64,000 nucleotides of DNA from an uncultured Prevotellaceae bacterium. GTDB taxonomy: Bacteria; Bacteroidota; Bacteroidia; Bacteroidales; Bacteroidaceae. Below the pieces are notes generated by a model. It did no database searches, had not been told where the DNA came from, and saw only the letters and a list, made by a program, of their open reading frames with translations. Shown one piece after another: positions 1-14,894 of this stretch (within the stretch, counting starts at the first letter, position 1; each line of letters begins with the position of its first letter). The stretch is taken from the NCBI GenBank assembly GCA_902778535.1, contig CACYYG010000003.1, positions 13,345 through 77,344 on the forward strand, given 5' to 3'. A program made the translations under genes and the position numbers.

Positions 1-3000
1 ACCACAAGTGTCAGTAGGGTGGTGTCATCGAAGTCATATTCCTTTATCTTGGAGAACTTTCCACTGCTCAGGAACTTGAAGAATCCGATTGGCTCAACAT
101 AATTTTCGGGATCTTCCCATTCCGACAGTACATTCTTTCTGATTCTGCTTGTCTTAATTGCATCTTCTTTCGATGTTACAAGAGGGGCATTTACAGCAAC
201 AATTTCTTGATTGGGGATAGGAATGGCCTCCTGGACTTCTTCAACAACAGGAACAGCTTGCAGTTTACGGCTTACTCTCTGGTACTCATTGAACTGTATT
301 TCGTTGAGTCTTCTCTTCGTGCCTGCCTTGCGGACATACCACTCATTCTTGTAAGGCAGTCCCGATTGTATAGGTAGGATTTCTAAAATTAGGACATCCT
401 TATCCGTGTTATCTTCATCGAAGCAGATTCTCTTTATGTATGTTGTGGCAATACTGTTATCCCATTCCAGAGCGACCGCATCGACTATCGACCTAACATA
501 TTTTTCTTTATCGCCGTAATAAAGCGACGTATTCAAGTCATCTTCCACGCCTATACCATATCCGAAGTTGTTTACTCCAATGTAAAGTGTACCACCTCTG
601 GTGTTGAAGAAAGAATCAATCACCTTCAGTATCTCATCTTTTTGCTTCTCTGGATTGGGTAGACCACTATTATCATCAGCTGCAAACACGAAACTTGTTT
701 TGTACTCCGTTTCCTCAGTCTCTTCTCCTGTGCCATAGAGCTTCAACCCTGTCTCATATCCCTTCAGATTCAGTAATTGGATTATTTTGTTGTGGATATT
801 TGTGGCACTGCTTTCCAATCTGTTTGCCTTGGTGATATTATATGCCAAAACAAGGGATGCCAGGTTTTTCAATGACATATTTGTATTAGCGAGAGTTACT
901 AAATCCATGTTATGCTCTTCCCTGCCAATGAAGCTGACTGTTTGGAGTTGCATGAATCTATCCCTCAATACTACATTATTACTGAAAAGCTCAGCATTAG
1001 CATTTGCGAGTTGTGTCAGTTTATCTTCATCAACCTTTGAATTCTGGGCGAAATCATGGAGCATGGTTATGATATCCATCCTGCCCTTATAGTAAGCTGC
1101 CTGAGATTCCCAACCAATCAAAAGGCATAGGAGTCTTGCAAAGCCTAGATAATTGTATGACTTGACGTACTCCGAATCTATCAGGGCCATCCTGTCAATC
1201 ATGTAGATAACTTCTCTTACATACGATTCATCGATCAGTTTATCGCTCTCCAATATCTGATCTTCCTCCTCCTCCGAAATTTTCTCTGGTATTTTGCCGA
1301 CACTGGCATCTTCCATGAGATTTTTGAAAGCAGTGTTCAGGTCAAAATCAAACGATGTGAAATCCACGATGTCACAGGATATATGGAATGTGCCAGAACC
1401 TGAGCCTTTCAGTCTGCATCGGACTATACTGTTCTTGCCTATTCCTTCAAAATCACCTGCATTTCTGATACTTACGCTGACACCTTCTTTTGTGATCGCA
1501 GGAGCGTTTCCATACATGTTCGGAGTGTTACCTACAGAACAAATGATATCTTCATCATCTGAATAATAGTCGTTGCCAAAATAGTTCTTCAAATCATCGA
1601 GCATGGAGAAATGGAACAGATCATCTTCCACGTCGATAATCTGTGCTTGGAAAACGTAACGGCTACCGTCTGAGGCATAGAAGTGGCGGAGTGAAGTAGT
1701 AATGGAGTACCCTACGATGTCGTTTATATAGATGAAACCATTGCCACCAATCTCGTCCTCTATCTGACAGTAGTATTTACTCCTGTCATCAATATCTTGC
1801 CCGGTAAAGGTAATCTTTACAGTATCATCTAATCGGTGCTGCTTTTTGTTTTTCTTTGCAACAACCAAAGGTTTCTTGTTACTATTGAAGAATTCTGATT
1901 CTATCTCTTGCCAAACGGACTGGTATGGGCTTATATCATTAGACTTGACGGACGATAAACTCGTTTCAGTCTTTGTAGGTAAGAATACCTGTAGGTTTTT
2001 CCATAGCCCCAAATCACTTGGAAACACAGGACGGAGGCTCTCTTTATCACCTGCTGTTTGCAGATGAATTCCATTACCTGAGATAACAAGTCTTCCGTTG
2101 CCCTGGGAGAAGGAGTTTATCGTGTCTATGTTAGCACAAGGAGAACTGTAGATGTAATGGGGCAGCATCTTCACTGCATCTAGCGAATACACTGGAAGCT
2201 TTGCAGACGAATGGAATAAGTTATAATATGCCGCGTTAACATGTTTTTCAGAACTAGATGGATAAAGGTAAGATGACAGCACGCACAATCTTGCGGCGTT
2301 AAGCCGATAATCTGCAACACCAGACATATTTGAATCCTTGATGAGTAGCAGTTGGATAGCCAATGCCAACATATTGGTGTCAATTAACGCCTGGTTATCT
2401 TTGGTTTTGTCAATCCTACCGTCACATTCTCTTATATAGAGTTCAAGCAATTTTATCAAAGCACTGCTAAATGGCTCTCTTTCCCATATTTTGATGTCTT
2501 TGTTGCTGATGATGTCTAACAGCTCTTTTATCCGACTGTTCATCAGGTCTGGCCTGCGTAGGAATAGGGCAGATAGAATATTAAAGTTCTTTGTTGGATG
2601 ATAAACAAAACCAGATACCTTTAGTTTATTGAAAATGTTGTCGATAAATTGAGTAGGTGTATCTTGTTCCGTCGTTTCATTTCCGATAAGTTCAGCAGCC
2701 CTTATGTAATAGCCGATTTGCTCAATGAGGGAAGTAAGCCTCTCTTGATAGAAGTCCCTTTCATTATAGCTGCAAATATTTAGAAGATCAGACAGCTCTA
2801 ATAAGTCAGAGCAATCTCGTCTTACTGTTTGTAAATCCATTTTTTTGTTTAATAAGCTTTGGATCCATCGATGGCATTGGGATTCATAGGATTTTTCTTT
2901 TTCTTCGGTAAGTAATAACTTAACAAACTCTTTTGTATTCCAAGATATTTCTCTGGATTCAAGTAATTCGGTTAGTTTGCCTTCAGTCAGGTTGTCATTG

Positions 3001-3245
3001 CTTTGCTCAAACTCGCTTATGTCTACAAGTTCAATTTTAGGATGCTTTTCGCTAACTGCTAACACCCGACATTTCACTGTTTGTCCCTTAAACAGTATAA
3101 GTTTTGCCGTACCTTGGAGATATGACGTTATTCCTGTTTTCTCATCGATTAATTCACAATAGTTATTGAACAGTGATTTTACTTTGTAATCAATTATGTC
3201 ACCTATTTTATAGGCTTGGCGTGGGGTTTGTTTCTCTTGCTCCAT
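1..3245 (-). CDS. Large (>1080 aa, 3'-truncated by the window edge) protein with S1/OB-like domains and an AlbA_2 (Schlafen-like) domain
   Basis: Manual translation of the minus strand gives one open frame from ATG 3245 (alternative ATG 3293) to position 1; it is absent from the ORF track because its stop lies outside the window. N-terminus YKIGDIIDYKVKSL...GQTVKCRVLAV is S1-like; ~725-320 reads ETEYKTSFVF...ILKVIDSFFNTRGGTLYIGVNNFGYGIGV, the AlbA_2 signature. Confidence 0.85.
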   Translation of the reverse strand, partial: MEQEKQTPRQAYKIGDIIDYKVKSLFNNYCELIDEKTGITSYLQGTAKLILFKGQTVKCRVLAVSEKHPKIELVDISEFEQSNDNLTEGKLTELLESREISWNTKEFVKLLLTEEKEKSYESQCHRWIQSLLNKKMDLQTVRRDCSDLLELSDLLNICSYNERDFYQERLTSLIEQIGYYIRAAELIGNETTEQDTPTQFIDNIFNKLKVSGFVYHPTKNFNILSALFLRRPDLMNSRIKELLDIISNKDIKIWEREPFSSALIKLLELYIRECDGRIDKTKDNQALIDTNMLALAIQLLLIKDSNMSGVADYRLNAARLCVLSSYLYPSSSEKHVNAAYYNLFHSSAKLPVYSLDAVKMLPHYIYSSPCANIDTINSFSQGNGRLVISGNGIHLQTAGDKESLRPVFPSDLGLWKNLQVFLPTKTETSLSSVKSNDISPYQSVWQEIESEFFNSNKKPLVVAKKNKKQHRLDDTVKITFTGQDIDDRSKYYCQIEDEIGGNGFIYINDIVGYSITTSLRHFYASDGSRYVFQAQIIDVEDDLFHFSMLDDLKNYFGNDYYSDDEDIICSVGNTPNMYGNAPAITKEGVSVSIRNAGDFEGIGKNSIVRCRLKGSGSGTFHISCDIVDFTSFDFDLNTAFKNLMEDASVGKIPEKISEEEEDQILESDKLIDESYVREVIYMIDRMALIDSEYVKSYNYLGFARLLCLLIGWESQAAYYKGRMDIITMLHDFAQNSKVDEDKLTQLANANAELFSNNVVLRDRFMQLQTVSFIGREEHNMDLVTLANTNMSLKNLASLVLAYNITKANRLESSATNIHNKIIQLLNLKGYETGLKLYGTGEETEETEYKTSFVFAADDNSGLPNPEKQKDEILKVIDSFFNTRGGTLYIGVNNFGYGIGVEDDLNTSLYYGDKEKYVRSIVDAVALEWDNSIATTYIKRICFDEDNTDKDVLILEILPIQSGLPYKNEWYVRKAGTKRRLNEIQFNEYQRVSRKLQAVPVVEEVQEAIPIPNQEIVAVNAPLVTSKEDAIKTSRIRKNVLSEWEDPENYVEPIGFFKFLSSGKFSKIKEYDFDDTTLLTLV

Positions 3246-3349
3246 AGGGTTTAGCTCATTTTTCTGGTTTATTGTTTGATAAGATATTACCATCAATATA
3301 CAATTATTCTTTATCACTCAGAATCAAAGGTTCATCAATGGATATTAAG

Positions 3350-3550
3350 CTATTCGGTAATTAAATCTCTTTTTTCACACTCTAGTAACTCTGCAATCTT
3401 GTCTATCGTCGGTAGTGTAGGTTGAGTTATATTACTACACCACTTCGATACTGTAACAGCAGTTACGCCCAACTGTTCAGCAAGCCATACACCAGTCTTG
3501 TCTTTCTCAACCAATACAAGTTTTAGACGATTTAATTTCTTCTTATTCAT
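3350..3550 (-). CDS. XRE/Cro-C1 family HTH transcriptional regulator (66 aa)
   Basis: MNKKKLNRLKLVLVEKDKTGVWLAEQLGVTAVTVSKWCSNITQP is a typical Bacteroidetes HTH_3 protein. True start is ATG 3550, not the track's 3715. Confidence 0.9.
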   Translation of the reverse strand: MNKKKLNRLKLVLVEKDKTGVWLAEQLGVTAVTVSKWCSNITQPTLPTIDKIAELLECEKRDLITE

Positions 3551-3573
3551 ATTTAATTCCTTAAATTTCGATG

Positions 3574-3581
3574 CAAATATA
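3574..3581 (-). promoter_or_regulatory. Bacteroidetes sigmaA -7 box (TATATTTG) for the XRE gene
   Basis: Matches TAnnTTTG on the minus strand, 24 bp upstream of ATG 3550. Confidence 0.6.
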
Positions 3582-3724
3582 ACTATAAAAGTTGAGAACA
3601 GAGAGCATGGCTTATTAAAACTTATTAAAAAGAGTTCTTGTGGGCTTGTTTTGGAGCCAAAATGGAGACAATCTGATTTTTTTTTTCTAATTTTGTACCC
3701 AATAGAAATAAACAATTAGCAAAA

Positions 3725-4696
3725 ATGGAAAAAGCTTGTTTTACGAATATAAGTAGTGAGATAATTTCATTACTTAATAATGCAAAAAGTGAGGTATTGG
3801 TTGCAATGGCATGGTTTACCAGTGCAGAATTATTTGAAGCATTACAATCCTGTATAAGTAGAAAAGTACATGTTGAACTCATTCTGTTAGATAGTCCAAC
3901 AAACTTTATGTATTATGCTCCTGATTTCAATAGACTTCTAACTCCTCATAGCTGTTTAAGAATAGCAAAGCAAGATGTTGGAATTATGCATCATAAATTT
4001 TGTATAATAGACAGCAAGTTGGTAATTACAGGCTCATATAATTGGACATACAGAGCAGAAACCTATAATATCGAAAACGTGTTAATTACAGATGTTTCTT
4101 CCATAGTTTATTCTTATAGACAAGAATTTGACCAGTTGGCTTCAAACATTGAAATTTCAACTTATAGTCCTAGATTAACTTGGAATGAGATTCAACAACG
4201 GGATGATGTGGATGTTCGTGAGATTAATTATGAGATAAAACATATTTGCAAAACTCGAAATCTTCCAGTCATGAATGTTATCAAAGCGAGCACTGTTGTG
4301 CAGGTTGTAGAAACAAAACGTATACCGTATGCAAATAGGTATATTGGTATAGAAGTTATTGATAACAACAAGAATTATTTTGATTCGTTTATTGAACCCA
4401 GGGAGCAGCTTCCAATCAAAACTAAAACTCACAATTTATATTTTGACAGCATGAATGAGACTGTGTTTCCCTGTACATTCATCTGTGGAACTACAAACAA
4501 CAGGGATTCAGCTCAACTTATCAAGGAAGTCAATTTGATTGACCTAACAAAGGGAATTTCAGATCTAAATCTATTGATTCAATTTTCTATGTCGCTAGAT
4601 GTAAATGGAAGTTTACGAATTGACATTACTTGTCCGGCTACTGGCAAAAAAATGATGATAAGTGATATCAACTCTAATTATGTAAAATATGAGTAA
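3725..4696 (+). CDS. Phospholipase D-family (single HKD, Nuc-like) protein fused to a C-terminal Hsp70 substrate-binding-domain-like region
   Basis: HHKFCIID...TGSYNWT HKD motif at ~3989-4050. C-terminus IGIEV...IEPREQLPIK...FSMSLDVNGSLRIDITCPATGKKMMI aligns by eye with DnaK LGIET...IAKNTTIPTK...[26 protein letters not shown]. Confidence 0.8.
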   Translation: MEKACFTNISSEIISLLNNAKSEVLVAMAWFTSAELFEALQSCISRKVHVELILLDSPTNFMYYAPDFNRLLTPHSCLRIAKQDVGIMHHKFCIIDSKLVITGSYNWTYRAETYNIENVLITDVSSIVYSYRQEFDQLASNIEISTYSPRLTWNEIQQRDDVDVREINYEIKHICKTRNLPVMNVIKASTVVQVVETKRIPYANRYIGIEVIDNNKNYFDSFIEPREQLPIKTKTHNLYFDSMNETVFPCTFICGTTNNRDSAQLIKEVNLIDLTKGISDLNLLIQFSMSLDVNGSLRIDITCPATGKKMMISDINSNYVKYE

Positions 4697-7334
4697 AGTA
4701 GTTAGCAAATACAGGTCTATTGTTAGGGAAATAAATAGAGCATTCTATCTATTTCAAGAGCTTTCAAATGATGAATTGAGACATGAGATGATTATGATAG
4801 AGCAGGCTGTCGAGCAAAGTAATTATAAAGCAGACTGCTTAGAGGAAAATCTCGTAAAAGTGTTTGCTATCGTAAAAGAAACTGCAAGACGCTTTTCAGA
4901 AGGGAATATTATCGTTTTAGCAAATGACTACGACAAGTACCTTTCAGAGACGTATGATTTTGTTGTTATAGAAAACGACAAGGCAATATATAAAAACAGG
5001 TGGGATGCTGGCGGAGTACCATTTGAGTGGAACATGGTACACTATGATGAACAGCTATTGGGTGGTATATTACTTCACAATGGTTATGCGGTTGAAATGC
5101 TGACGGGAGAGGGGAAAACTCTTGTCGCCACCCTACCTGTTATGTTGAATGCTCTTACGCATGATGGAGTGCACATGATGACCGTGAATAGCTATTTGTC
5201 AAAGCGAGATTTTGAACTCACACGTCCTTTGTATATGTTCTATGGGCTTACGGCAGACTGTATTGAGTATTATCCTAATGGAAGCGTTAGGCGCAAGAAA
5301 GCCTACAAAGCAGATATTACGTTTGGAACTAATTCTTCATTTACTTTTGATTATTTGTATGATCACCTTGCTATGGACCCTTCAGAATGTGTTCAACAGA
5401 AACACACATTCGCAATCATCGATGAGTTGGATTCAATACTGATTGATGATGCAGGAACTCCACATGTCATAGGCGGTGGCAACTATTATAATCATGGCAA
5501 ATATTATGAGGAGAATCTTCCAATAATAAAAGAACTTTTGGAATCAGGGAACGCTCTTTCTCTCTACGAATCGGATTCTTTGCATAAAAAGGCTGAATTC
5601 ACAAAGGATGGAAAGGCATGGCTTGCTGCAAAAAAACAGATTCCGGATTTATTTGCTGTTGAGAAAACCTATGAAATTGATGATTTTGACGAGCTTATTC
5701 CAACAGAAAAGAATGAATTATTAGAAAAAATGTTCATTCAAAATGTCCTTTATCAGTTGCTCGTTGCTTTTACAGTTTATGAGAAGGATATAGACTATGT
5801 CGTAGATAATGGTAAGATTAAAATAATTGACCAAAATACAGGGCGCATTAAAGAAAGTAACAGGTGGGAACATGGATTGCATTCTGCCATAGAAGTGAAG
5901 GAAGGGGTTAAGGTTCAGGATGATTTTGACGGTATGGCCGTCATATCGTTAAAGAACTATTTCAAGCTATATCACAAAGTCGCAGGTATGTCAGGAACGA
6001 TCATGGCTGTGAAAGACGAGTTGGAAGATGTCTATGGCTTGAAGTGTGAATCATTACCCACCCACAAACCTCTTATCCGCTTAGACATGCCATTACGGGT
6101 TTATAGGACAGAGGAACAAAAAGAAAAAGCTATTATTGATCTCATCATAGAAAACAAGAAAAATGGTCGGCCAACATTGTTAGGATGCATCAACATAAAA
6201 CGTTGTGAAAATATTGCTTGTCTGCTTGAAGTACAAAATATACCATTCAATCGTTTAGATGCTAAAACCATCAAAGGAGAAGCAGTCACCATTGCAAAAG
6301 CCGGAATCGGGAATACTATTACAGTAGCTACAAGCGTTGCAGGACGTGGAACCGACATCAAGCCATCGCAAGATGCGCTCGACAATGGTGGACTGATGGT
6401 CATTGGTACCGATTTGTTTGACTCAGTCAGAATAGACAATCAGTTGAAAGGAAGGACGGGAAGACAAGGCAATCCTGGCTCTTCCGTGTTTTTTGCATCT
6501 TTAGAAGATTCTATACTACAATACCTTAGCAAAGAAGATCAAATCCAATTAGAAATGATTTTTAATAACAAACAGGCCAACGAACTCAATGATACTCAGG
6601 TCTTGTCTTTCTTCGCAAAAGCCCAGTCTAACAGAGAGTCCTTGTCATATCAAAGTAGAGTAAGCACGGCGCGAAAGGATGATGTTGTTGCTCCACGCAG
6701 GTTGAGATTCTATAGCCAGCGTAATGAATTGCTCTTTAATCCAAATAGTGCTATTACGTTAGTTGAACAAATTGCCAAAGCCAACAACGTTCCCATTGAA
6801 ACTATAGACAAACATTTGAACGAATTATACCAGACCACCAAAGAATTACTTAATAGAAGTCTTAGAAATAATCCATACGCTTTACGAGCCTTAGTGGCTT
6901 TCTCTAACAACAGACATTCATTTGCCATCCATTTAAATATTCATTCTGTTATTAATAGTTGTGTTGACTTTGAGACAGAGTTTAAGAGGCAAGTATTACT
7001 GCAAGTCTCAGATAAGGAATGGAAAAAATTTGTCATCTATATGATGGGGGATTTGGATAACCATGAAATCGATTTGCTAGATGAAAGATATGAGAAGATG
7101 ATGGATAAAATAAAAGCCATTGTCCTTAGTAGGCTTACAAATTCCACAATCATTTTCGATGAAAAAAAGCAAGAAGATTACATTTATAGAAAAGAGGAAC
7201 CTTCTTCCGAGCCAGTAAAATCTCATAACACCATTGCCCCCGATGATCCCTGCCCATGTGGCAGCCAAAAAAAATACCGTGAATGTCATGGTCGAGGCAT
7301 TCACGGCACTCCTATGAAGAGACGTAGACGTTAG
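4689..7334 (+). CDS. secA: Divergent SecA paralogue (881 aa) with C-terminal SEC-C motif
   Basis: MVHYDEQLLGG, MLTGEGKT, IIDELDSILIDDA, YFKLYHKVAGMSGT, VATSVAGRGTDIK, DNQLKGRTGRQG and PCPCGSQKKYRECHG. Start overlaps the PLD gene by 8 nt. Confidence 0.9.
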   Translation: MSKVVSKYRSIVREINRAFYLFQELSNDELRHEMIMIEQAVEQSNYKADCLEENLVKVFAIVKETARRFSEGNIIVLANDYDKYLSETYDFVVIENDKAIYKNRWDAGGVPFEWNMVHYDEQLLGGILLHNGYAVEMLTGEGKTLVATLPVMLNALTHDGVHMMTVNSYLSKRDFELTRPLYMFYGLTADCIEYYPNGSVRRKKAYKADITFGTNSSFTFDYLYDHLAMDPSECVQQKHTFAIIDELDSILIDDAGTPHVIGGGNYYNHGKYYEENLPIIKELLESGNALSLYESDSLHKKAEFTKDGKAWLAAKKQIPDLFAVEKTYEIDDFDELIPTEKNELLEKMFIQNVLYQLLVAFTVYEKDIDYVVDNGKIKIIDQNTGRIKESNRWEHGLHSAIEVKEGVKVQDDFDGMAVISLKNYFKLYHKVAGMSGTIMAVKDELEDVYGLKCESLPTHKPLIRLDMPLRVYRTEEQKEKAIIDLIIENKKNGRPTLLGCINIKRCENIACLLEVQNIPFNRLDAKTIKGEAVTIAKAGIGNTITVATSVAGRGTDIKPSQDALDNGGLMVIGTDLFDSVRIDNQLKGRTGRQGNPGSSVFFASLEDSILQYLSKEDQIQLEMIFNNKQANELNDTQVLSFFAKAQSNRESLSYQSRVSTARKDDVVAPRRLRFYSQRNELLFNPNSAITLVEQIAKANNVPIETIDKHLNELYQTTKELLNRSLRNNPYALRALVAFSNNRHSFAIHLNIHSVINSCVDFETEFKRQVLLQVSDKEWKKFVIYMMGDLDNHEIDLLDERYEKMMDKIKAIVLSRLTNSTIIFDEKKQEDYIYRKEEPSSEPVKSHNTIAPDDPCPCGSQKKYRECHGRGIHGTPMKRRRR

Positions 7335-9802
7335 TTTTCCTTTACGAAAGGAACCAAGAAATCGTTGATATACAAGAAGAAAGAAATTGATCTGTCGGGA
7401 TTTTTAACAGCCAGCATTGGATTACAGGTATTTATGGACTCATCTGCGGCCTTTTTGGCTATAAGTTCCATTGATGCAGGTGTATATGTACCAGCTTTTT
7501 CTGTCGAATATGTATAGTCGCCTATATAGTCAATAATACCCTTTGAAGTTCTGAAAGCATCCTCTAATAGAGGCTTTGCGTTAATAGCATCTATCATGTG
7601 CGTAACCATAATAAGTTGGCCATCCCTGCTATAGCTTCCAAGTAAATATCCTATTGGCCCGTCAGTAATGTCATCCATATCTTCTCCGTCAAATATTGTT
7701 TCTGAACTAATAGCCATTCGAATGCCATAACCATCGAGTTTATAAGTTTCTAAACGATCAGCAACCACGCCTCTATTATCATGTGACCATATTGTGCTAT
7801 GTAGGTGCTCTCCTTGTCCTATTTTAATATTTAATTCACGTACAAAGAGATTTACAAGCGAAGCTATGTCACTATTTGTAGCGAGGAAAGTTGGTGAATA
7901 GCAGCCGCTCCCTTCAAGATAGAAGTTCTTGGTATCTTGTTCTATACGTGATAAGTACGCTTTACGTAACTCAAAAGGATTACCGTCTTTTGAAGAAATA
8001 CATAATAGATTTGATGAATGGTTTGTAATACATAAACTGACGATATCCGTTTCGGGAACGGCATAGCTAATGAAATGAAGCATTTCGTTACTTCCTGTGC
8101 AATCAATTATCAAATCGTAATCCTTTATCTGTTTTATGCTATCCTCTTGGTTACAGTAATTGATATTTCCATAGAAGGAGCCGCCTTCATAAGTGTAGTC
8201 ATTGACATTGTCATGTTGATGCCAGTAACCATTATCTTTGATTTCCTTTGTTTTTATAAATGGGTTTATTGAGAGTAGTCTTTTTTTAAGAGCATCAACC
8301 TTACTTGTCCCCAAATCAGATAGTAGATATATGCTTCTGCAAATATTCCCAGGTTCTACAATGTCACTATCCCATAGTCCCATAATAGTAACTCCACTTC
8401 TTGCTAATGATTCGGCAATCATGGAACCCAATGCCCCAAGACCAACTAGTGCAATTCTCTTGTTTTGGAGTTGTTGCGAAAATAATCCTCTGCCAAAGAA
8501 CAAATTGTTATCAATAATCTGTGGGAGTTGAAGCTGCAATGGGAAAGATATAGGTTTTCTCAGGTTTATGTCCCTCAAATTCAGATTAAAAGACATTTCA
8601 TCGTATTGACCTGCTTGTCTGTTTGTATAGCATAAAAGCCAAGTGGTTTTTTCTGAATCTCTTATGCCCAATGCAAAACAGTGGTATTCATAAGGGTAAA
8701 CATATATGGCATAGTCCTCCTCAGCTTGTCTTGCATATTCTTCTTCCAACTCTTCTTCTGTCATTTCGTCAAGGTCTTTGGCTGGTCCGGAAAGTGAAGC
8801 GAAAGGTCTATAACCGTTATATTTCTTTATTTCTTCTTCAAGTCTAACAAGACATTCGTTTAGCAGTGTCTTTTGTTGAGGCAACACCTTTGTTTGGACA
8901 TAATCAGGATTTTTATTTATACGTGCTGGGAGGTATGACTCTTCTTTTGCCAGTTCTTCCTTTATCCCAGTTAAGATAATGTTAGCTTCTTCAAAAGAAT
9001 AGTTGTTAAAACTGATTCTATAAGAGCCACCTTCAGCCCATGACTTGCTTAGATTAAAACCATGTAATAAATGCTCACACGTTTTCTCATCCCAGTCATA
9101 CTGATTCTTAAGGAGTATAAAATCTCTATAAGTATCAATATTCTTGGGGGCTTCATCAACTATTATATATGGTAACTCATAATTTGCCAATTCTTTGTTT
9201 TGGAGAGCATAAAAACGTTTATCTGGTGTCTTGATGCAATGGATAGTACCCATTTTTTCTTTAAAATAATCCATGTCATTGGAGAAATCTCCAACAAAAG
9301 TCAAAATAGCATCACCATGATATTCACTTAACTCATCACTGTTCTCCCAACTATAAGCACTCTCGAAAGCTAGTGCATTTCTTACGTTTTCGTCTTCGAT
9401 AACAGCTTCTAAGTCTGGCCGCATTTGACGACCTATCCATTCTTTAAGACGGAGAACTTCTATCTCTAATTGGTTCTCGGCGGTTTCAGCAAAGGGTGTA
9501 TTCAAGCAAAACCATCCACCATATTTCTCAGCCTTTGGATCCTTTCTCGGATTGTAAATCAAATGAGGATACCCAAACAGTGATTTAGTTCGAAACATCA
9601 ACTTCTGATGTGGAAAGGACATTGGGATTTCCACTCTCAGTTCAAGTGGGTGAATTGTATTGAGAACTTCAATACGACCCACATAACATTTTTTTTCTTC
9701 CTTGTCTTCTGATTCCTTGAATTCCTCAATGACACTAAAGCCTGGATGATTCTGGAAGAATGAAGTGTAGAAAGAAGCGTCTTTATACTCGAACATAGCC
9801 AT
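7331..9802 (-). CDS. E2-like + ThiF/E1 + degenerate JAB fusion (823 aa), Cap2-like conjugating enzyme
   Basis: N-terminal E2-like YPHL...WFCLN (C99); ThiF motifs VGLGALGS and DSDIVEPGNICRS; E1 catalytic-type GSGCYSPTF (C634); C-terminal GYLLG...YIGDYTYST...NPMLAV is JAB/MPN-like but lacks HxH. Confidence 0.85.
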   Translation of the reverse strand: MAMFEYKDASFYTSFFQNHPGFSVIEEFKESEDKEEKKCYVGRIEVLNTIHPLELRVEIPMSFPHQKLMFRTKSLFGYPHLIYNPRKDPKAEKYGGWFCLNTPFAETAENQLEIEVLRLKEWIGRQMRPDLEAVIEDENVRNALAFESAYSWENSDELSEYHGDAILTFVGDFSNDMDYFKEKMGTIHCIKTPDKRFYALQNKELANYELPYIIVDEAPKNIDTYRDFILLKNQYDWDEKTCEHLLHGFNLSKSWAEGGSYRISFNNYSFEEANIILTGIKEELAKEESYLPARINKNPDYVQTKVLPQQKTLLNECLVRLEEEIKKYNGYRPFASLSGPAKDLDEMTEEELEEEYARQAEEDYAIYVYPYEYHCFALGIRDSEKTTWLLCYTNRQAGQYDEMSFNLNLRDINLRKPISFPLQLQLPQIIDNNLFFGRGLFSQQLQNKRIALVGLGALGSMIAESLARSGVTIMGLWDSDIVEPGNICRSIYLLSDLGTSKVDALKKRLLSINPFIKTKEIKDNGYWHQHDNVNDYTYEGGSFYGNINYCNQEDSIKQIKDYDLIIDCTGSNEMLHFISYAVPETDIVSLCITNHSSNLLCISSKDGNPFELRKAYLSRIEQDTKNFYLEGSGCYSPTFLATNSDIASLVNLFVRELNIKIGQGEHLHSTIWSHDNRGVVADRLETYKLDGYGIRMAISSETIFDGEDMDDITDGPIGYLLGSYSRDGQLIMVTHMIDAINAKPLLEDAFRTSKGIIDYIGDYTYSTEKAGTYTPASMELIAKKAADESINTCNPMLAVKNPDRSISFFLYINDFLVPFVKEN

Positions 9803-9808
9803 CTCTAT

Positions 9809-9946
9809 TTATGCGTGACCTCTTGGAGAAGGTGTTGAGGTCGGTGGATTCTGTGTTGATACTCTCGCCTCAGGTTCTTTACGAGTAGTTCTGAGGACAG
9901 TCCGATTTGACGGGCCAATACCATTGTATGAAGGATTGTTATTCAT
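9809..9946 (-). CDS. Unannotated 45-aa low-complexity peptide MNNNPSYNGIGPSNRTVLRTTRKEPEARVSTQNPPTSTPSPRGHA, candidate E1 substrate/modifier
   Basis: ATG 9946 to TAA 9809; the stop is 6 nt before the E2-E1 ATG; a -7 box lies just upstream. Below the ORF-track size cut-off. Confidence 0.7.
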   Translation of the reverse strand: MNNNPSYNGIGPSNRTVLRTTRKEPEARVSTQNPPTSTPSPRGHA

Positions 9947-9976: not shown

Positions 9977-9984
9977 CAAAAGTA
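9977..9984 (-). promoter_or_regulatory. -7 box (TACTTTTG) of the peptide/E2-E1-JAB operon
   Basis: Perfect TAnnTTTG on the minus strand ~30 bp upstream of ATG 9946. Confidence 0.65.
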
Positions 9985-10844: not shown

Positions 10845-11192
10845 GTGAAAGCTATGAGACGTGTCAAGACAAGAATACTGCTAGCCCTGCTGTCTGTCCT
10901 CCCGCTGGCACAGCCGTCCTATGCCCGTGGTGGTGGCGTCGACTACAGCCAGTCGGCTCAGGCTCTTCATGAGATGAATGTATATATTCTTCTCATTATG
11001 GGCTATGTCACTGAGATCTGCTTTGCCATTGCTGCTCTGCTCTCGACCTACAGTGCCTTGGTGCTGTATCAGAAGGTCTCTTCCGGTGAACAGGGCTTCA
11101 CGAAGGGAGTCCTTGTCCTCATCGGTGGTATTCTCTTCATGATTGCCTCCACGTATGTCATGCCCGCCTTCTTTGGAATCAGGAACATGTGA
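10845..11192 (+). CDS. traE: DUF4134/TraE-like pilin (VirB2-like), copy 1
   Basis: Signal peptide plus two hydrophobic helices ending MPAFFG; upstream of TraF/TraG. Confidence 0.7.
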   Translation: MKAMRRVKTRILLALLSVLPLAQPSYARGGGVDYSQSAQALHEMNVYILLIMGYVTEICFAIAALLSTYSALVLYQKVSSGEQGFTKGVLVLIGGILFMIASTYVMPAFFGIRNM

Positions 11193-11241
11193 TTTTTCAT
11201 TTCGATATGCTTTAGGTTAAATTTTAAAAAAGTAAAACAAC

Positions 11242-11631
11242 ATGAAGAAGTTCGTTAAGAACGTTGCCTCCAACCTCGGAGGCTGTCTGCTCCGTAAGGG
11301 AAAGCAGATTGTGAGAAGTTCCCGTGCCCTCGTCACGGTAGTCATGGCCCTCGTTGCCGGAACGGTGTTCGCCCAGAGCGGTGATGTCAGTGCCGGTGCC
11401 AGTGCCCTTCAGGGTGTCACTAGTGACATTGCGGCTTACCTGCCCTATGTCCAGGCCCTCATCTACATCATCGCTGCCGTGCTGACCGCCCCCAACGCCA
11501 TCGGCGTGTTCCACGAGTGGCAGAACGGTGACCAGGAGGCCAAGAAGCACACTATCGCCCTCGTCGGCGGTGCCATCTTCCTCGTCGTGGCCGTGCAGAG
11601 CCTGCCTCTGTTCTTCGGTGCCGGTGACTAA
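11242..11631 (+). CDS. traE: DUF4134/TraE-like pilin (VirB2-like), copy 2
   Basis: GDVSAGASAL...YLPYV...NGDQEAKK...SLPLFFG family pattern. Confidence 0.8.
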   Translation: MKKFVKNVASNLGGCLLRKGKQIVRSSRALVTVVMALVAGTVFAQSGDVSAGASALQGVTSDIAAYLPYVQALIYIIAAVLTAPNAIGVFHEWQNGDQEAKKHTIALVGGAIFLVVAVQSLPLFFGAGD

Positions 11632-11649
11632 TCCTAATCATCACTGAGC

Positions 11650-11940
11650 ATGGAGAGCAATGAACATCCCGGCTATGTCACCTCCAAGGGGCTTCAGCGC
11701 CCCCTGGAGGTCTTCGGGCTGCGCGGAAGGTACATCTATTGGGCCGTCGGCACAGTCGTGGCTACCTTCCTGCTGTTCGTTGTCGGGTTCATCTTCTCAG
11801 GGTTCACCGTCGGTCTCATCATGAGTACAGCCGTGCTGGGTGCCGGCGGTGGACTTACCTTTATCAAGCAGAGCAAGGGGCTGTACAGTAAAAAAGACGA
11901 CAATGGAGTCTTCATTTTCGCCCGCAGCATCGGCGAGTAA
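11650..11940 (+). CDS. traF: DUF4133/TraF (VirB3-like)
   Basis: KGLQRPLEVFGLRGRYIYW motif, two TM segments, directly upstream of the VirB4 gene. Confidence 0.85.
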   Translation: MESNEHPGYVTSKGLQRPLEVFGLRGRYIYWAVGTVVATFLLFVVGFIFSGFTVGLIMSTAVLGAGGGLTFIKQSKGLYSKKDDNGVFIFARSIGE

Positions 11941-11951
11941 TAAGATATGTT

Positions 11952-14894
11952 ATGATATCATTGATTTGCATATTGGTTTTCGTTTCCGTTCTCATCGGCA
12001 TGGGTATCTCCGTCAAGGCCTTCGGCACTGGCGGCAAGCGTGCCCGTATCTTCCAGGACATCTATTTCAGCATCGAGGATGTTGATGGTATCGGCATCAT
12101 CTATACCAAGACGGGAGAGTATTCCGCCATCATTAAGATGGATAATCCCGTCCTGAAGTTCTCCGCTGACGAGGACAGCTACTATGGCTTCGTGAACCTG
12201 ATGACCTCCGTTGTCACCACGCTTGGCGAGGGCTATGCCCTGCACAAGCAAGACATCTTCGTCCACAAGACTTTCGAGCGTCCCGCCGACGAACCTGTGG
12301 ACAACGGCAAGCGTTTCCTCTCCGAGTCCTATTTCCGTTTCTTCAAGGGCCGTCCCTATACGGCCAGCAGCACCTATCTTGTCATCACCCAGGAGAGCAA
12401 GAAGGGAGGTCTCTTCACTTTTGAGAGCAAGAAATGGGGTGACTTCCAGATGAAGATCCAGAAAGTCTATTCGCTGCTTTCCGACAGCGGCATCACCTGT
12501 TCCTTCCTCAGTATGAAGGAAGCCCGTGAGTATGCCGACCGTTTCTTCGCCGTCAACTTCAACGACAAGGTCTTTTCCATGACCGACTTCAAGGTTGACA
12601 GCGAAGGAATCCGCATGGGCAACAGGCAGTGCAAGGTCTTCAGCCTGATAGACCTCGACAGCGTAGGACTCCCCAATGTCCTCCGTCCCTATACCGAGCT
12701 TCATGTCGATAACGCCACCATGCCCGCCGATCTCATGGGCGACATCGACCATGTGCCTGATGTGGACACCCTTGTCTACAACCAGGTTCTGTTCATCCCC
12801 AACCAGAAGAAGGAGCAGAACAACCTGGAGAAGAAGCAGAACAAGCACCGTGCCATGGCCAACCCCGCCAACATGATTGCCGCCAAGGACATCGAGGAGG
12901 CCCAGGAGGTCATGGCCCGTGAGAACCGCCAGCTTGTCTATTCCCATTTCAACATGCTTGTCAGCATCGGTGCCGACAAGGACATGGACAAGGTCACCAA
13001 CCATCTGGAGAATATCTTCTCCAAACAAAATATCCGTATCAGCCGCCGGGCGTACAACCAGCTGGAGCTTTTCGTGGCCAGCTTCCCCGGTAACTGTTTT
13101 TCTTTGTCGCCCAAGTACGACCGTTTCCTCACGTTCTGTGAGGCCGCCATCTGCCTGATGTACAAGGAGCGTCAGACGCAGGGTGACATCACCCCGCTGC
13201 GCTGCTACTATACCGACCGTCAGGGCGTGCCCATGGCCGTTGACATCACCGGCAAGGAGGGCAAGAAGAAATACACCAATAACAGTAATTTCTTCGTGCT
13301 GGGTCCGAGCGGCAGCGGAAAAAGTTTCTTTATGAATACCGTTGTCCGCCAGTATTACGAGCAGGACACCGATGTCGTCATCGTCGATACCGGCGACAGC
13401 TATGAGGGTATCTGCGGCTATTTCGGCGGTGTCTATATCAGCTACAGCAAGGAACGTCCCATCTCCATGAACCCCTTCAAGGTCACGGAGGAGGAGTACA
13501 CCCAGAACTTCGGAGAGAAAAAGAACTTCCTCAAGAGCCTTATCTTCCTCATCTTCAAGGGCACCGAGAAGCCCACGAAGATTGAAGAGACCATCATCAA
13601 CCAGACCATCGTCGAGTACTACCGTGAGTATTTCACGCCTTTCAGGGGCTACAGCGACACCGAGCGTCAAGAGCTTGCTGACCGTCTCGTTCTCCAGTAC
13701 AAGAAGGACGGCACTTTCGACACCTTTGAGAAGGACTTCGAGAAAGCCTATATGGAGAAGCATGGTGTCAGTCTCACCGAGGAGGAACAGGAGCGTCAGG
13801 ACAGGCTGATGAACAAGGAGCGTAAGCTTGACAACCTTATCAATGACGATGCCGCTACTGAGGGAGAAAAGCACTCCGCCAGGGTGCGTCGTGAGGAGGT
13901 GCACCATGAGCTGATGAAGCTCACCGAGCTTACCGCCAGCAGTTTCGATGACAAGATCAGCCGTGATATCATCAAGATGGAGATGCAGCGCAGCAAGCTC
14001 CGTGTTTCCGAGCTGAGTTTCAATACTTACTATGAGTTTGCCGTGGAGCGCATCCCCCAGATACTGAAGGAGCAGCATGTGGACTTCGCCATCCATGACT
14101 TCGCCACCATCCTGCAGCCGTTCTACAAGGGTGGTGAGCTGGAGTACACGCTGAACAACGATATGGACAGCACCCTTTTCGATGAAAAGTTCATTGTCTT
14201 CGAGATTGACAAGGTGAAGGACGACCCCATCCTTTTCCCCATCATCGTGCTCATCATCATGGATGTGTTCACCCAGAAGATGCGCATCAAGAAAGGCCGC
14301 AAGTGCCTGGTCATCGAAGAGGCGTGGAAGGCCATTGCCACCCCCGTCATGGCAGAGTACATCAAGTACCTCTATAAGACCGCCCGCAAGCATTGGGCGA
14401 TGGTCGGTGTGGTGACGCAGGAGATCCAGGACATCACCAGCAGTGAGATTGTCAAGGAGGCCATCATCAACAACTCCGACGTCTTTATGCTTTTGGACCA
14501 AAGCAAGTTCAAGGACAAGTTCGATGACATCAAGGCCACGCTGGCCTTGACGGACATCGACTGTAAGAAGATCTTTACGATTAACCGTCTTGACAACAAG
14601 GAGGGTCGCAGTCCCTTCAAGGAGGTCTTCATCAAGCGCGGCACAGAGGGAGATGTCTTCGGTGTCGAGGAGCCGAGGGAGTGCTATATCAGCTATACCA
14701 CGGAGAAGGCCGAGAAGGAAGCCCTGAAAGTCTATGTCCGCCATTACGGTGGTGACTACCAGAAGGCCATCGTTGCCTTCATCCATGATTGGGAACGCAG
14801 CGGCATCGGCAAGTCTCTGGAGTTCGCCCGCAAGGTGTTGAAGGAAGGCGTTCTCAACCTCCCCGCAAGGAGTGTGAGGATGATACAAGCATAG
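11952..14894 (+). CDS. traG: TraG / VirB4-family T4SS ATPase
   Basis: Walker A GPSGSGKS, VIVDTGDSY, Walker B LVIEEAW, TARKH...VTQ. Confidence 0.95.
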   Translation: MISLICILVFVSVLIGMGISVKAFGTGGKRARIFQDIYFSIEDVDGIGIIYTKTGEYSAIIKMDNPVLKFSADEDSYYGFVNLMTSVVTTLGEGYALHKQDIFVHKTFERPADEPVDNGKRFLSESYFRFFKGRPYTASSTYLVITQESKKGGLFTFESKKWGDFQMKIQKVYSLLSDSGITCSFLSMKEAREYADRFFAVNFNDKVFSMTDFKVDSEGIRMGNRQCKVFSLIDLDSVGLPNVLRPYTELHVDNATMPADLMGDIDHVPDVDTLVYNQVLFIPNQKKEQNNLEKKQNKHRAMANPANMIAAKDIEEAQEVMARENRQLVYSHFNMLVSIGADKDMDKVTNHLENIFSKQNIRISRRAYNQLELFVASFPGNCFSLSPKYDRFLTFCEAAICLMYKERQTQGDITPLRCYYTDRQGVPMAVDITGKEGKKKYTNNSNFFVLGPSGSGKSFFMNTVVRQYYEQDTDVVIVDTGDSYEGICGYFGGVYISYSKERPISMNPFKVTEEEYTQNFGEKKNFLKSLIFLIFKGTEKPTKIEETIINQTIVEYYREYFTPFRGYSDTERQELADRLVLQYKKDGTFDTFEKDFEKAYMEKHGVSLTEEEQERQDRLMNKERKLDNLINDDAATEGEKHSARVRREEVHHELMKLTELTASSFDDKISRDIIKMEMQRSKLRVSELSFNTYYEFAVERIPQILKEQHVDFAIHDFATILQPFYKGGELEYTLNNDMDSTLFDEKFIVFEIDKVKDDPILFPIIVLIIMDVFTQKMRIKKGRKCLVIEEAWKAIATPVMAEYIKYLYKTARKHWAMVGVVTQEIQDITSSEIVKEAIINNSDVFMLLDQSKFKDKFDDIKATLALTDIDCKKIFTINRLDNKEGRSPFKEVFIKRGTEGDVFGVEEPRECYISYTTEKAEKEALKVYVRHYGGDYQKAIVAFIHDWERSGIGKSLEFARKVLKEGVLNLPARSVRMIQA

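Follow-up and report, generated by a model that had tools for sequence, protein, structure and literature searches.

A gene that fuses a ubiquitin-conjugating (E2) domain, a ubiquitin-activating (E1) domain and a JAB domain in one polypeptide resides in the genome of an uncultured Prevotellaceae bacterium, in a stretch of 64,000 nucleotides (nt) of contig CACYYG010000003.1 that was analyzed as a whole and is called the window throughout. The fusion protein, hereafter the ligase, has three partners. A short open reading frame (ORF) precedes its gene, and at the other side lie genes encoding a paralogue of the SecA protein and a nuclease of the phospholipase D (PLD) type, which is extended at its C-terminus by a domain similar to the beta part of the substrate-binding domain (SBDbeta) of Hsp70. 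Genes encoding the peptide, the ligase, the SecA-like protein and the PLD-SBDbeta nuclease are a conserved, horizontally mobile four-gene cassette. Features of the cassette, and of the DNA at its sides, are listed in Table 1.

Table 1. Coordinates of the cassette, of the domains of the ligase and of adjoining genes in the window (aa, amino acids)
Feature	Position	Strand	Description
E2-E1-JAB fusion (ligase)	7331-9802	minus	single ORF, 823 aa as annotated
E2 (UBC-like) domain, aa 1-130	9413..9802	minus	catalytic Cys99 in WFCLN (W97-F98-C99-L100-N101)
Cap2-like linker/middle region, aa 131-430	8513..9412	minus	acidic insertion; covered by the structural alignment to Cap2
E1 (ThiF-type) adenylation domain, aa 431-665	7808..8512	minus	Cys634 (GCYSPTF) on the mobile crossover loop
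Pseudo-JAB (MPN-minus) domain, aa 666-823	7334..7807	minus	JAMM residues E, H, H, S and D all replaced
Peptide gene, MNNNPSYNGIGPSNRTVLRTTRKEPEARVSTQNPPTSTPSPRGHA-stop	9809..9946	minus	45 aa; putative first cistron, separated by 6 nt from the annotated ATG of the ligase; candidate tag and substrate of the E1 domain
Bacteroidetes-type -7 promoter element, TACTTTTG	9977..9984	minus	31 nt upstream of the peptide ATG
SecA paralogue	4689..7334	plus	881 aa; DEAD motor, PPXD, wing/scaffold, SEC-C zinc motif; convergent to the ligase gene, with a 4-nt overlap
PLD-SBDbeta nuclease	3725..4696	plus	323 aa; single-HKD PLD (Nuc/NucT-like) nuclease with C-terminal Hsp70 SBDbeta-like domain; overlaps the SecA-like gene by 8 nt
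Small helix-turn-helix (HTH) gene	3350-3715	minus	adjoins the cassette
Gene for a protein with C-terminal Schlafen/AlbA_2 domain	3-3317	minus	>1100 aa; adjoins the cassette
Conjugative-element genes	10845-14894 and onward	plus	two DUF4134 TraE-like, one DUF4133 TraF-like, TraG

Translation of the ligase probably starts at 9796, which would yield a protein of 821 aa; homologues, as the database cluster, begin at Met3 (MF[ED]YKD). Reading of the interval on the plus strand was ruled out, as the translation contains stops throughout. The E2-E1-JAB architecture of the window ligase recurs in >480 homologue clusters, and is therefore far beyond chance. Conservation was assessed in an alignment of 74 sequences, spanning about 20-81% identity. 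Residues H80 and C99 of the E2 domain are invariant (74/74), and so are, in the E1 domain, the residues of the ATP site (R438, G454/G456/G459, D478, N486, R489, K501) and the G633-C634 pair. The nucleotide loop, the Arg finger, the Mg/ATP Asp and the Lys which distinguish E1/ThiF adenylating enzymes are all present. A triple fusion with intact ligase cysteines and an intact ThiF nucleotide loop had been described in the initial annotation, made on the window sequence, and both traits hold across the family.

The ThiF domain (PF00899) is the sole Pfam match of the whole ligase (aa 442-578, 72.6 bits; cut-off 28.1). When the protein was compared by phmmer to PDB sequences, the best matches were the Cap2 structures 7tsq/7to3, and C634 aligned with the catalytic cysteine of the Cap2 E1 domain. 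[quoted passage not shown] The nearest NCBIfam model is cap2_3 (NF058523) of the 6A-MBL (MBL, metallo-beta-lactamase) systems, which matches the E1 region only, with 84.9 bits against a cut-off of 320. A full-length AlphaFold model, derived from the 74-sequence alignment, has a confidence (predicted local distance difference test, pLDDT) of 89 and a predicted template modelling score (pTM) of 0.74. The loop 624-637, which hosts Cys634, is the only segment with pLDDT <50; values are mostly >85 in the region spanning aa 131-430, the most variable part of the family. In Foldseek searches the best PDB match of the full-length model is Cap2 7to3_A (755 columns, E 2.1e-19). The top 50 hits are E1 and Cap2 matches only, and hence the C-terminal domain was modelled separately. 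Structural matches include MccB, a ThiF-family enzyme which acts on short ribosomal peptides. Because the catalytic cysteines and the ATP residues are invariant, and Cap2 is the best match at both the sequence and the structure level, the ligase half of the protein looks fully competent.

The ORF encoding the peptide is unannotated in the window. The predicted product terminates with ...TPSPRGHA, and a tail-bearing ORF ending in [PS]x[RK][GA][HY]A-stop is found upstream of the ligase in every homologous locus for which upstream sequence is available. Altogether 38 distinct peptides were sorted. They feature an N-terminal (N)PS[YIT]NG motif, the C-terminal [PS]x[RK][GA][HY]A-stop motif and a variable middle, and 24/38 end with TPSPRGHA. 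The median ratio of nonsynonymous to synonymous substitution rates (dN/dS) is 0.16 (257 pairs). S, T, P, N and G make up 52% of the residues of the peptide; no match was found by Pfam search, and no beta-grasp fold was detected. Long N-terminal extensions reported for the database homologues P0046, P0064 and P0103 of the ligase were rejected as mis-called starts, due to read-through of the peptide gene in another frame.

Scanning for sigma-70 promoters and terminators gave 13 matches versus 10.7 expected; such a scan is uninformative for a Bacteroidales sequence, and the TAnnTTTG box was used instead. This box occurs in 30 of 43 distinct homologous upstream regions, at a distance of 28-62 nt from the peptide ATG (28-48 nt in 29 of the 30). 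Since a -7 box lies upstream, and the ORF is located directly before the ligase, the peptide gene looks like the first cistron of the ligase transcript.

The C-terminal domain of the ligase features substitutions at all positions of the JAMM metal site. By exhaustive HMMER search a tier of relatives measuring ~690-790 aa was identified, which align to the window protein over the whole E1 and C-terminal region, have an intact JAMM motif (NEFGG...IGEWH[ST]HP...YS..D) and score above the Pfam Prok-JAB cut-off. The stretch I-G-E-W-H-T-H-P of these active-JAB relatives corresponds to I-G-D-Y-T-Y-S-T (D762-T767) in the window ligase, where the upstream Glu and the S..D residues are lost, too. The homology is evident from BLASTP, which aligns the C-terminal 145 aa of the window protein to the active JAB of one relative, P0163, with E 3e-15. 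Among 227 proteins with a length of 650 aa or more, the full E-H-H-S-D set was found in 39, all measuring 662-788 aa. The complete motif is found in 0/188 members of the window's family: the Glu column is missing, the second His has mostly become Ser, and the first His as well as the S and D positions vary. Members of this dead clade are also marked by a deletion of ~15 residues (37-sequence alignment).

The separate AlphaFold model of aa 665-823 has pLDDT 86.5. Its best PDB match is Cap3 9ild_A (E 2.9e-6, TM 0.66/0.69), followed by CSN6, Rpn8, Rpn11 and other MPN domains. The MPN fold of the JAMM/MPN+ metalloprotease class is thus predicted, the E...HxH...S..D zinc site of the class is missing. 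The claim in the initial annotation that the domain is a JAB with a lost metal site (Y-T-Y-S-T) is borne out by alignment to P0163, by the Cap3/MPN fold and by the comparison of active and dead homologues. Conservation of the domain equals or exceeds that of the rest of the ligase, and the median dN/dS is ~0.09 (13 pairs). As it is under such strong purifying selection, the domain is, judging from alignments and model, a maintained MPN-minus pseudo-enzyme, and not a product of decay.

No JAMM deconjugase is encoded by the cassette, and no Prok-JAB match above cut-off was found in the whole genome. It is hence unlikely that a JAB undoes any tagging by the ligase; a non-JAMM peptidase might do so in trans. 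Conjugation had been proposed to be irreversible in cis. Lack of a JAMM deconjugase in cis agrees with the proposal, irreversibility as such is unproven. Binding of the tag or of the target by the pseudo-JAB, also proposed, is plausible at most. A second ThiF-family gene, encoding 458 aa, is found in the same genome on contig C16, at ~50.0-53.9 kb (L009, L108). It is adjoined by a gene for a 403-aa protein with a weak RING/U-box-like match, and a 606-aa ORF with a sub-threshold Prok-JAB match (20.8 bits) is located ~3 kb apart. The C16 locus may represent another ubiquitin-like module.

The remaining members of the cassette are both assembled from known domains. The SecA-like protein is a complete SecA paralogue; it matches Pfam SecA_DEAD with 9.9e-82, and the NCBIfam SecA model with a score of 662, the cut-off being 1493; the housekeeping SecA is encoded on another contig of the same genome. 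The SEC-C tail gives weak matches to PADLOC CBASS 'E2' models, and short CBASS E2 proteins may share the SEC-C motif. The PLD nuclease (Pfam PLDc_2, 1e-25) is NucT/DrmC-like. A profile of its C-terminal ~125 aa, compared to the PDB, retrieved Hsp70/DnaK substrate-binding domains (HSPA2, E 1.8e-8; DnaK 1DKZ, 6e-6). The protein has no Hsp70 ATPase domain.

Linkage of the four genes was monitored in loci identified by a scan of species genomes (10 loci), a scan of metagenomes (80 loci) and tblastn searches with the window proteins. In contigs encoding ligases 78% and 58% identical to the window protein, the SecA-like and PLD genes run towards the ligase gene, with adjoining or overlapping ends, and the flanking sequences are unrelated. 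In every locus of sufficient length, the SecA-like gene accompanies the ligase (~90 surveyed, 37-100% ligase identity). The PLD gene is part of the cassette in the long-enough loci except L096 and L100-102, in which no PLD match was found, and resides also in the nearest outgroup with active JAB. The SecA-like and PLD genes are in most cases convergent with the ligase. The organization may vary. In L098 (JAEIGA010040346.1, 812-6846) genes for PLD, SecA-like protein, peptide and ligase are co-directional and form one operon; here the peptide is shorter and ends with ...PSGRAHA. In L096 and L100-L102, the most divergent dead-JAB members (37-40% identity), a ...SSRGYA-stop tail is carried by a larger nuclease-like protein, encoded upstream of position 6001, not by a free peptide, and the genes for the ligase and the SecA-like protein are co-directional, in this order.

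Genes encoding a CD-NTase or an MBL protein were found in none of the ~90 homologous dead-JAB loci. In agreement with the initial annotation, none is present in the neighbourhood in the window, nor is a gene for a ubiquitin-like (Ubl)/beta-grasp protein. SMODS (PF18144) has no match in the whole genome. The same annotation had called the fusion an orphan, a label that must be dropped, as the upstream tail-bearing ORF is always present, and SecA-like and PLD-SBDbeta genes accompany the ligase in long-enough loci, the PLD exceptions being those mentioned above. The HTH and AlbA_2 neighbours (3-3715) were considered as additional members of the cassette and rejected, because unlinked to it in other loci. 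HTH and AlbA_2/HATPase gene pairs are located a few kb from the cassette in L001-L004.

The relatives of ~690-790 aa constitute a sister clade (P0163, P0277, P0288, P0297, P0302, and others). They resemble the window protein in the E2-E1-JAB architecture and in the tail motif found at their loci (...TPAPRPYA). In contrast to the window, the JAMM EHHSD residues are intact, Prok-JAB scores above the cut-off, tails usually extend by 1-3 residues, there is no SecA paralogue, and the tail is often carried by a membrane-anchored nuclease-like protein or by the PLD nuclease itself. The tail-bearing gene is located directly upstream of the ligase, and often overlaps it. In L020 and L105 this gene encodes a free peptide and a PLD-SBDbeta partner is present, as in the window; the tails read ...TPAPRSYA+SRH and ...TPAPRPYA+YE, respectively (residues which follow the motif are given after the plus sign). 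The upstream gene encodes a nuclease-like protein of 340-410 aa in L104 (...PRPYA+V), L110 (+YE), L023 (...PQPYA+N) and L109 (no extension), a PLD nuclease in L106 (...TSYG+TI) and L111 (+K), and a SMODS cyclase in L107 (...SKFG, no extension). The 340-410-aa proteins have a weak DUF559-like (PD-(D/E)xK-type) core, several an N-terminal transmembrane helix, and a long S/T/P/K-rich tail ending in ...PAPRPYA(+0-2 residues). To judge from their sequences, they look like versions of the tag borne by an effector. By analogy, the upstream partner would be the E1 substrate in the relatives, which matches the CBASS logic.

Extra residues, 1 to 3 in number, follow the tail motif in 7/9 active-JAB loci (SRH, YE, V, N, TI, YE, K) and in 0 dead-JAB loci. 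The divergent dead-JAB loci L096 and L100-102 also carry no extension after ...SSRGYA. The pattern is consistent with a JAB that would mature the tail, and that would be dispensable once the tag is made in mature form.

Peptides can be sorted into two types by changes of the middle region, A (..TVLRTTRKE..) and B (..GLETERRV..). Identity of the SBDbeta is 0.62 within and 0.27 between peptide types. The corresponding drop is only ~10 points for the ligase, the SecA-like protein and the catalytic domain of the PLD nuclease. Locus L025 illustrates the point. Compared to the window, the ligase is 82% and the SecA-like protein 81% identical, the SBD 26% and the peptide 49%; compared to other type-B loci, the SBD is 66-71% and the peptide 72-83% identical, the ligases only 56-64%. 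The peptide middle co-varies with the SBDbeta of the nuclease, not with the ligase. Since the co-varying genes, peptide and PLD, are at opposite ends of the cassette, this co-variation argues for selection on the match between peptide and SBD.

The cassette has a low GC content (36-41% vs ~55%) and adjoins, as cargo, the TraE/TraF/TraG genes of a Bacteroidales conjugative element. It sits at the edge of the tra operon, and the GC content rises from ~37% to ~55% where the tra genes begin. A second low-GC block is found in the window at ~54-62 kb. No tRNA gene marking an island boundary was found in the 64,000 nt. The full cassette has been identified also in a cultured type strain, Phocaeicola barnesiae DSM 18169 (L014, NZ_KB894650.1 73911-92355; ligase 52% identical), between TraG/ParA and the relaxase gene of a conjugative element. 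Other dead-JAB copies reside in chromosomal islands without tra genes, next to type III CRISPR-Cas and type I restriction-modification (RM) systems, or to zeta toxin, VapE and reverse transcriptase genes. Cassettes of the sister clade adjoin bacteriophage exclusion (BREX) and McrBC, RM, or AbiEi genes. The distribution of the cassette is patchy, with absence from 60/60 related genomes.

Sequence comparisons and models favor a pathway in which the Cap2-type ligase activates the terminal Ala of the peptide and attaches the peptide to a target, the PLD nuclease reading the tag. The disordered 45-aa peptide would be translated from the first cistron, and its C-terminal Ala adenylated by the E1 domain. 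The invariant ...P-x-[RK]-[GA]-[HY]-A tail would be the counterpart of the LRGG end of ubiquitin, or of the Ala/Gly-ended tail of CBASS cyclases. Cys634 would then hand the peptide over to Cys99 in thioester linkage, and a lysine of a target would be its final acceptor. The tag being made mature, with nothing after Ala, proteolysis by the JAB would have become dispensable, and so would have been lost, the MPN-minus domain being retained for binding or scaffolding. The variable middle of the tag would be bound by the Hsp70-type SBDbeta, and binding would bring the nuclease, and perhaps the SecA-like unfoldase/translocase motor, to the tagged substrate. The constant N-terminal motif of the peptide would contact an equally constant component, which might be the pseudo-JAB or the SecA-like protein. 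The SecA-derived motor would engage the tagged or unfolded substrate. The full picture is put forward more tentatively than its core: a free, disordered, ready-made modifier of 45 aa, conjugated by an E1-E2 cascade, read by an SBDbeta-PLD nuclease and handled by a SecA-derived motor, with the JAB turned into an MPN-minus adaptor, might make up a 'tag, recognise, destroy' immune module. To judge from genes and contexts, the cassette most likely serves to defend against phages, or against other mobile or foreign DNA.

Several points weigh against these proposals. Every enzymatic step, the target and the phenotype are deduced from sequence, predicted structure and comparative genomics; what the target is, and what the SecA paralogue and the pseudo-JAB do, can only be guessed. 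That the peptide is translated is deduced from its conservation alone. The link between dead JAB and lack of extension corresponds to approximately one evolutionary transition, and counts of loci are statistically non-independent; in addition, the active-JAB loci L109 and L107 lack an extension as well. The nuclease is not universal, given the absence of a PLD match in L096 and L100-102. Common descent of the two cassette ends, and not contact, might account for part of the co-variation of peptide and SBDbeta. The defensive role is suggested by genomic context: PADLOC has no model for the SecA-like protein, and returns only generic DrmC-like matches for the PLD nuclease. Location in an integrative and conjugative element (ICE) fits equally well a function of benefit to the element.

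The peptide could be attached to an internal target, the PLD nuclease or the SecA-like protein of the cassette itself, in order to prime or restrain it, instead of to a protein of an invader. In CBASS, conjugation by Cap2 regulates an enzyme of the system (PMC11153139; PMC11601596), the tail is part of the effector itself in the relatives, and the four genes are tightly co-inherited. A non-covalent SBDbeta reader which co-varies with the peptide would however be needless, were the peptide covalently bound to the nuclease, and an internal target is considered rather unlikely.

About the same low probability is assigned to a cassette serving the mobile element, by anti-defence, entry exclusion or competition during ICE transfer. 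Both in the window and in Phocaeicola barnesiae, the cassette is placed between the tra genes and the mob/ParA genes of a conjugative element, and such a function is a live alternative to defence. Against it, other copies reside in chromosomal islands by type III CRISPR-Cas, RM or BREX genes, and have no tra genes, and a PLD nuclease effector is typical of defence systems.

Tagging of a protein would not occur at all if the ThiF domain adenylated the C-terminus of the peptide as MccB/PaaA do, to give a modified or cyclised small molecule of the type of ribosomally synthesized and post-translationally modified peptides (RiPPs), exported with the aid of the SecA paralogue. The presence of MccB among the structural matches, the linkage of a SecA-type motor to the ligase, and a candidate substrate which is short and has no beta-grasp fold are in line with this scheme. 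The E2 domain, with its invariant Cys and HPN-like His, has however no role in MccB/PaaA chemistry, and the 340-410-aa proteins, the cyclase and the PLD nucleases which bear the same tail in the relatives are not possible RiPP precursors. The cassette includes no transporter, immunity or leader-peptidase gene, and the peptide is devoid of a signal sequence. The presence of a peptide-binding domain on a nuclease agrees better with a reader than with a biosynthetic pathway. RiPP-like chemistry is thus regarded as improbable.

Less probable still, the JAB might not be dead, and remove the tag by a new, metal-independent site made by family-specific residues (e.g. H735, D762, S766). Several polar residues which surround the old metal site do not vary within the core family, and serine-type peptidases replace the JAB in Bub operons (PMC11601596). 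H735 and S766 are nevertheless not kept in the divergent dead-JAB members L087, L096 and L101, and CSN6 and Rpn8, which are among the best matches of the fold, are classical non-catalytic MPN-minus proteins. Finally, a decayed type II CBASS or 6A-MBL remnant, in which the ligase, deprived of the JAB site and of a partner cyclase or MBL, would be turning into a pseudogene, is suggested by the closest profile matches (PDLC00827, cap2_3) and by the missing JAB residues, and is effectively refuted: the gene is intact in >480 clusters with both ligase cysteines invariant, it has its own conserved partners in ~90 loci, the genome has no SMODS match, and, as no dead-JAB locus has a CD-NTase and the dead domain has a dN/dS of about 0.09, the decayed CBASS copy envisaged in the initial annotation is dismissed.

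The tagging pathway favored here may be compared to known systems. Cap2 conjugates the tails of CBASS cyclases, whose last residue is Ala or Gly (PMC11153139; PMC11601596). The window ligase shares the E2-linker-E1 fold and both cysteines with enzymes of type II CBASS, as Enterobacter cloacae Cap2-CdnD (7TO3), and its C-terminal domain has the fold of Cap3 (Cap3-CD-NTase, 9ILD). The cyclase tail is, like the candidate substrate in the window, disordered, Ala-ended, and encoded directly upstream (PMC11153139). Unlike type II CBASS, the window has no CD-NTase gene, no nucleotide-sensing effector and no second-messenger step; the place of an active Cap3 is taken by a JAB which has no catalytic site and is part of the ligase polypeptide, the tail stands alone as a 45-aa peptide, and the ligase is partnered by a SecA paralogue and a PLD-SBDbeta nuclease.

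CBASS, Pycsar and MBL pathways are known to employ fused E2-E1 enzymes (PMC11601596), and E2-E1-JAB triple fusions have been known since 2006 (PMC1779556; row 6a = 6A-MBL). 6A-MBL is reported to be anti-phage in Pseudomonas aeruginosa (PMC13276650; 10.1101/2025.09.30.679545). 6A-MBL proteins are similar to the window ligase because they hold E2, E1 and JAB in this order in a single polypeptide, and reside on mobile elements. The window ligase differs in its cap2_3 score, far below the cut-off, in the lost JAB site, and in the partner genes; no MBL gene is found among the neighbours, which are PLD, SecA-like, HTH, AlbA_2 and tra genes.

The eukaryotic MPN-minus proteins Rpn8, CSN6 and eIF3f/h resemble the pseudo-JAB, since they are MPN folds without a metal site, which are retained next to an active enzyme for scaffolding or binding. 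Their partner is an active MPN+ subunit; the window domain is instead fused to a ligase, and no active partner was detected in the cassette or in the genome. Pup, found in actinobacteria, is a small, intrinsically disordered modifier with a conserved C-terminus and no beta-grasp fold, attached by the glutamine-synthetase-like ligase PafA via the side chain of its C-terminal Glu. The window peptide is likewise small, disordered by composition, and conserved at the C-terminus. In contrast to the Pup-PafA pair, the enzyme encoded next to the peptide is of the E1-E2 type, with cysteines for thioesters, and Ala is the last residue of the tail. No PafA/Dop-type ligase was found beside the tag, where the E2-E1 fusion lies, or among the neighbours; PafA was not searched for genome-wide. 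The beta-grasp Ubl gene which marks Bil and Bub operons has no counterpart in the cassette, where no Ubl/beta-grasp match was found, and the architecture differs from those reported (PMC11601596).

Known bacterial E1-E2 conjugation either ligates the tail of an enzyme of the same system (CBASS, Pycsar, 6A-MBL) or uses beta-grasp Ubls (Bil, Bub). In the literature that was searched, no description was found of an E1-E2 system with a free disordered peptide, of a JAB dead family-wide and fused to a ligase, of a partnership of SecA-like and PLD-SBDbeta proteins, or of the cassette as a whole. There is a substantial chance that the tag-and-reader logic is new. If true, a free disordered tag handled by Cap2-type chemistry would represent a third logic, and E1-E2 enzymes would not need a ubiquitin fold. 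The family would offer a series, from effector-borne tail and active JAB, to free peptide with extension and active JAB, to mature free peptide and dead JAB, so that the way in which a pseudo-deubiquitinase arose can be tested directly. The cassette would put SecA and Hsp70 substrate-binding modules to use outside secretion and folding. The cassette is common in mobile elements of gut and rumen Bacteroidales, and may influence the traffic of phages and plasmids there.

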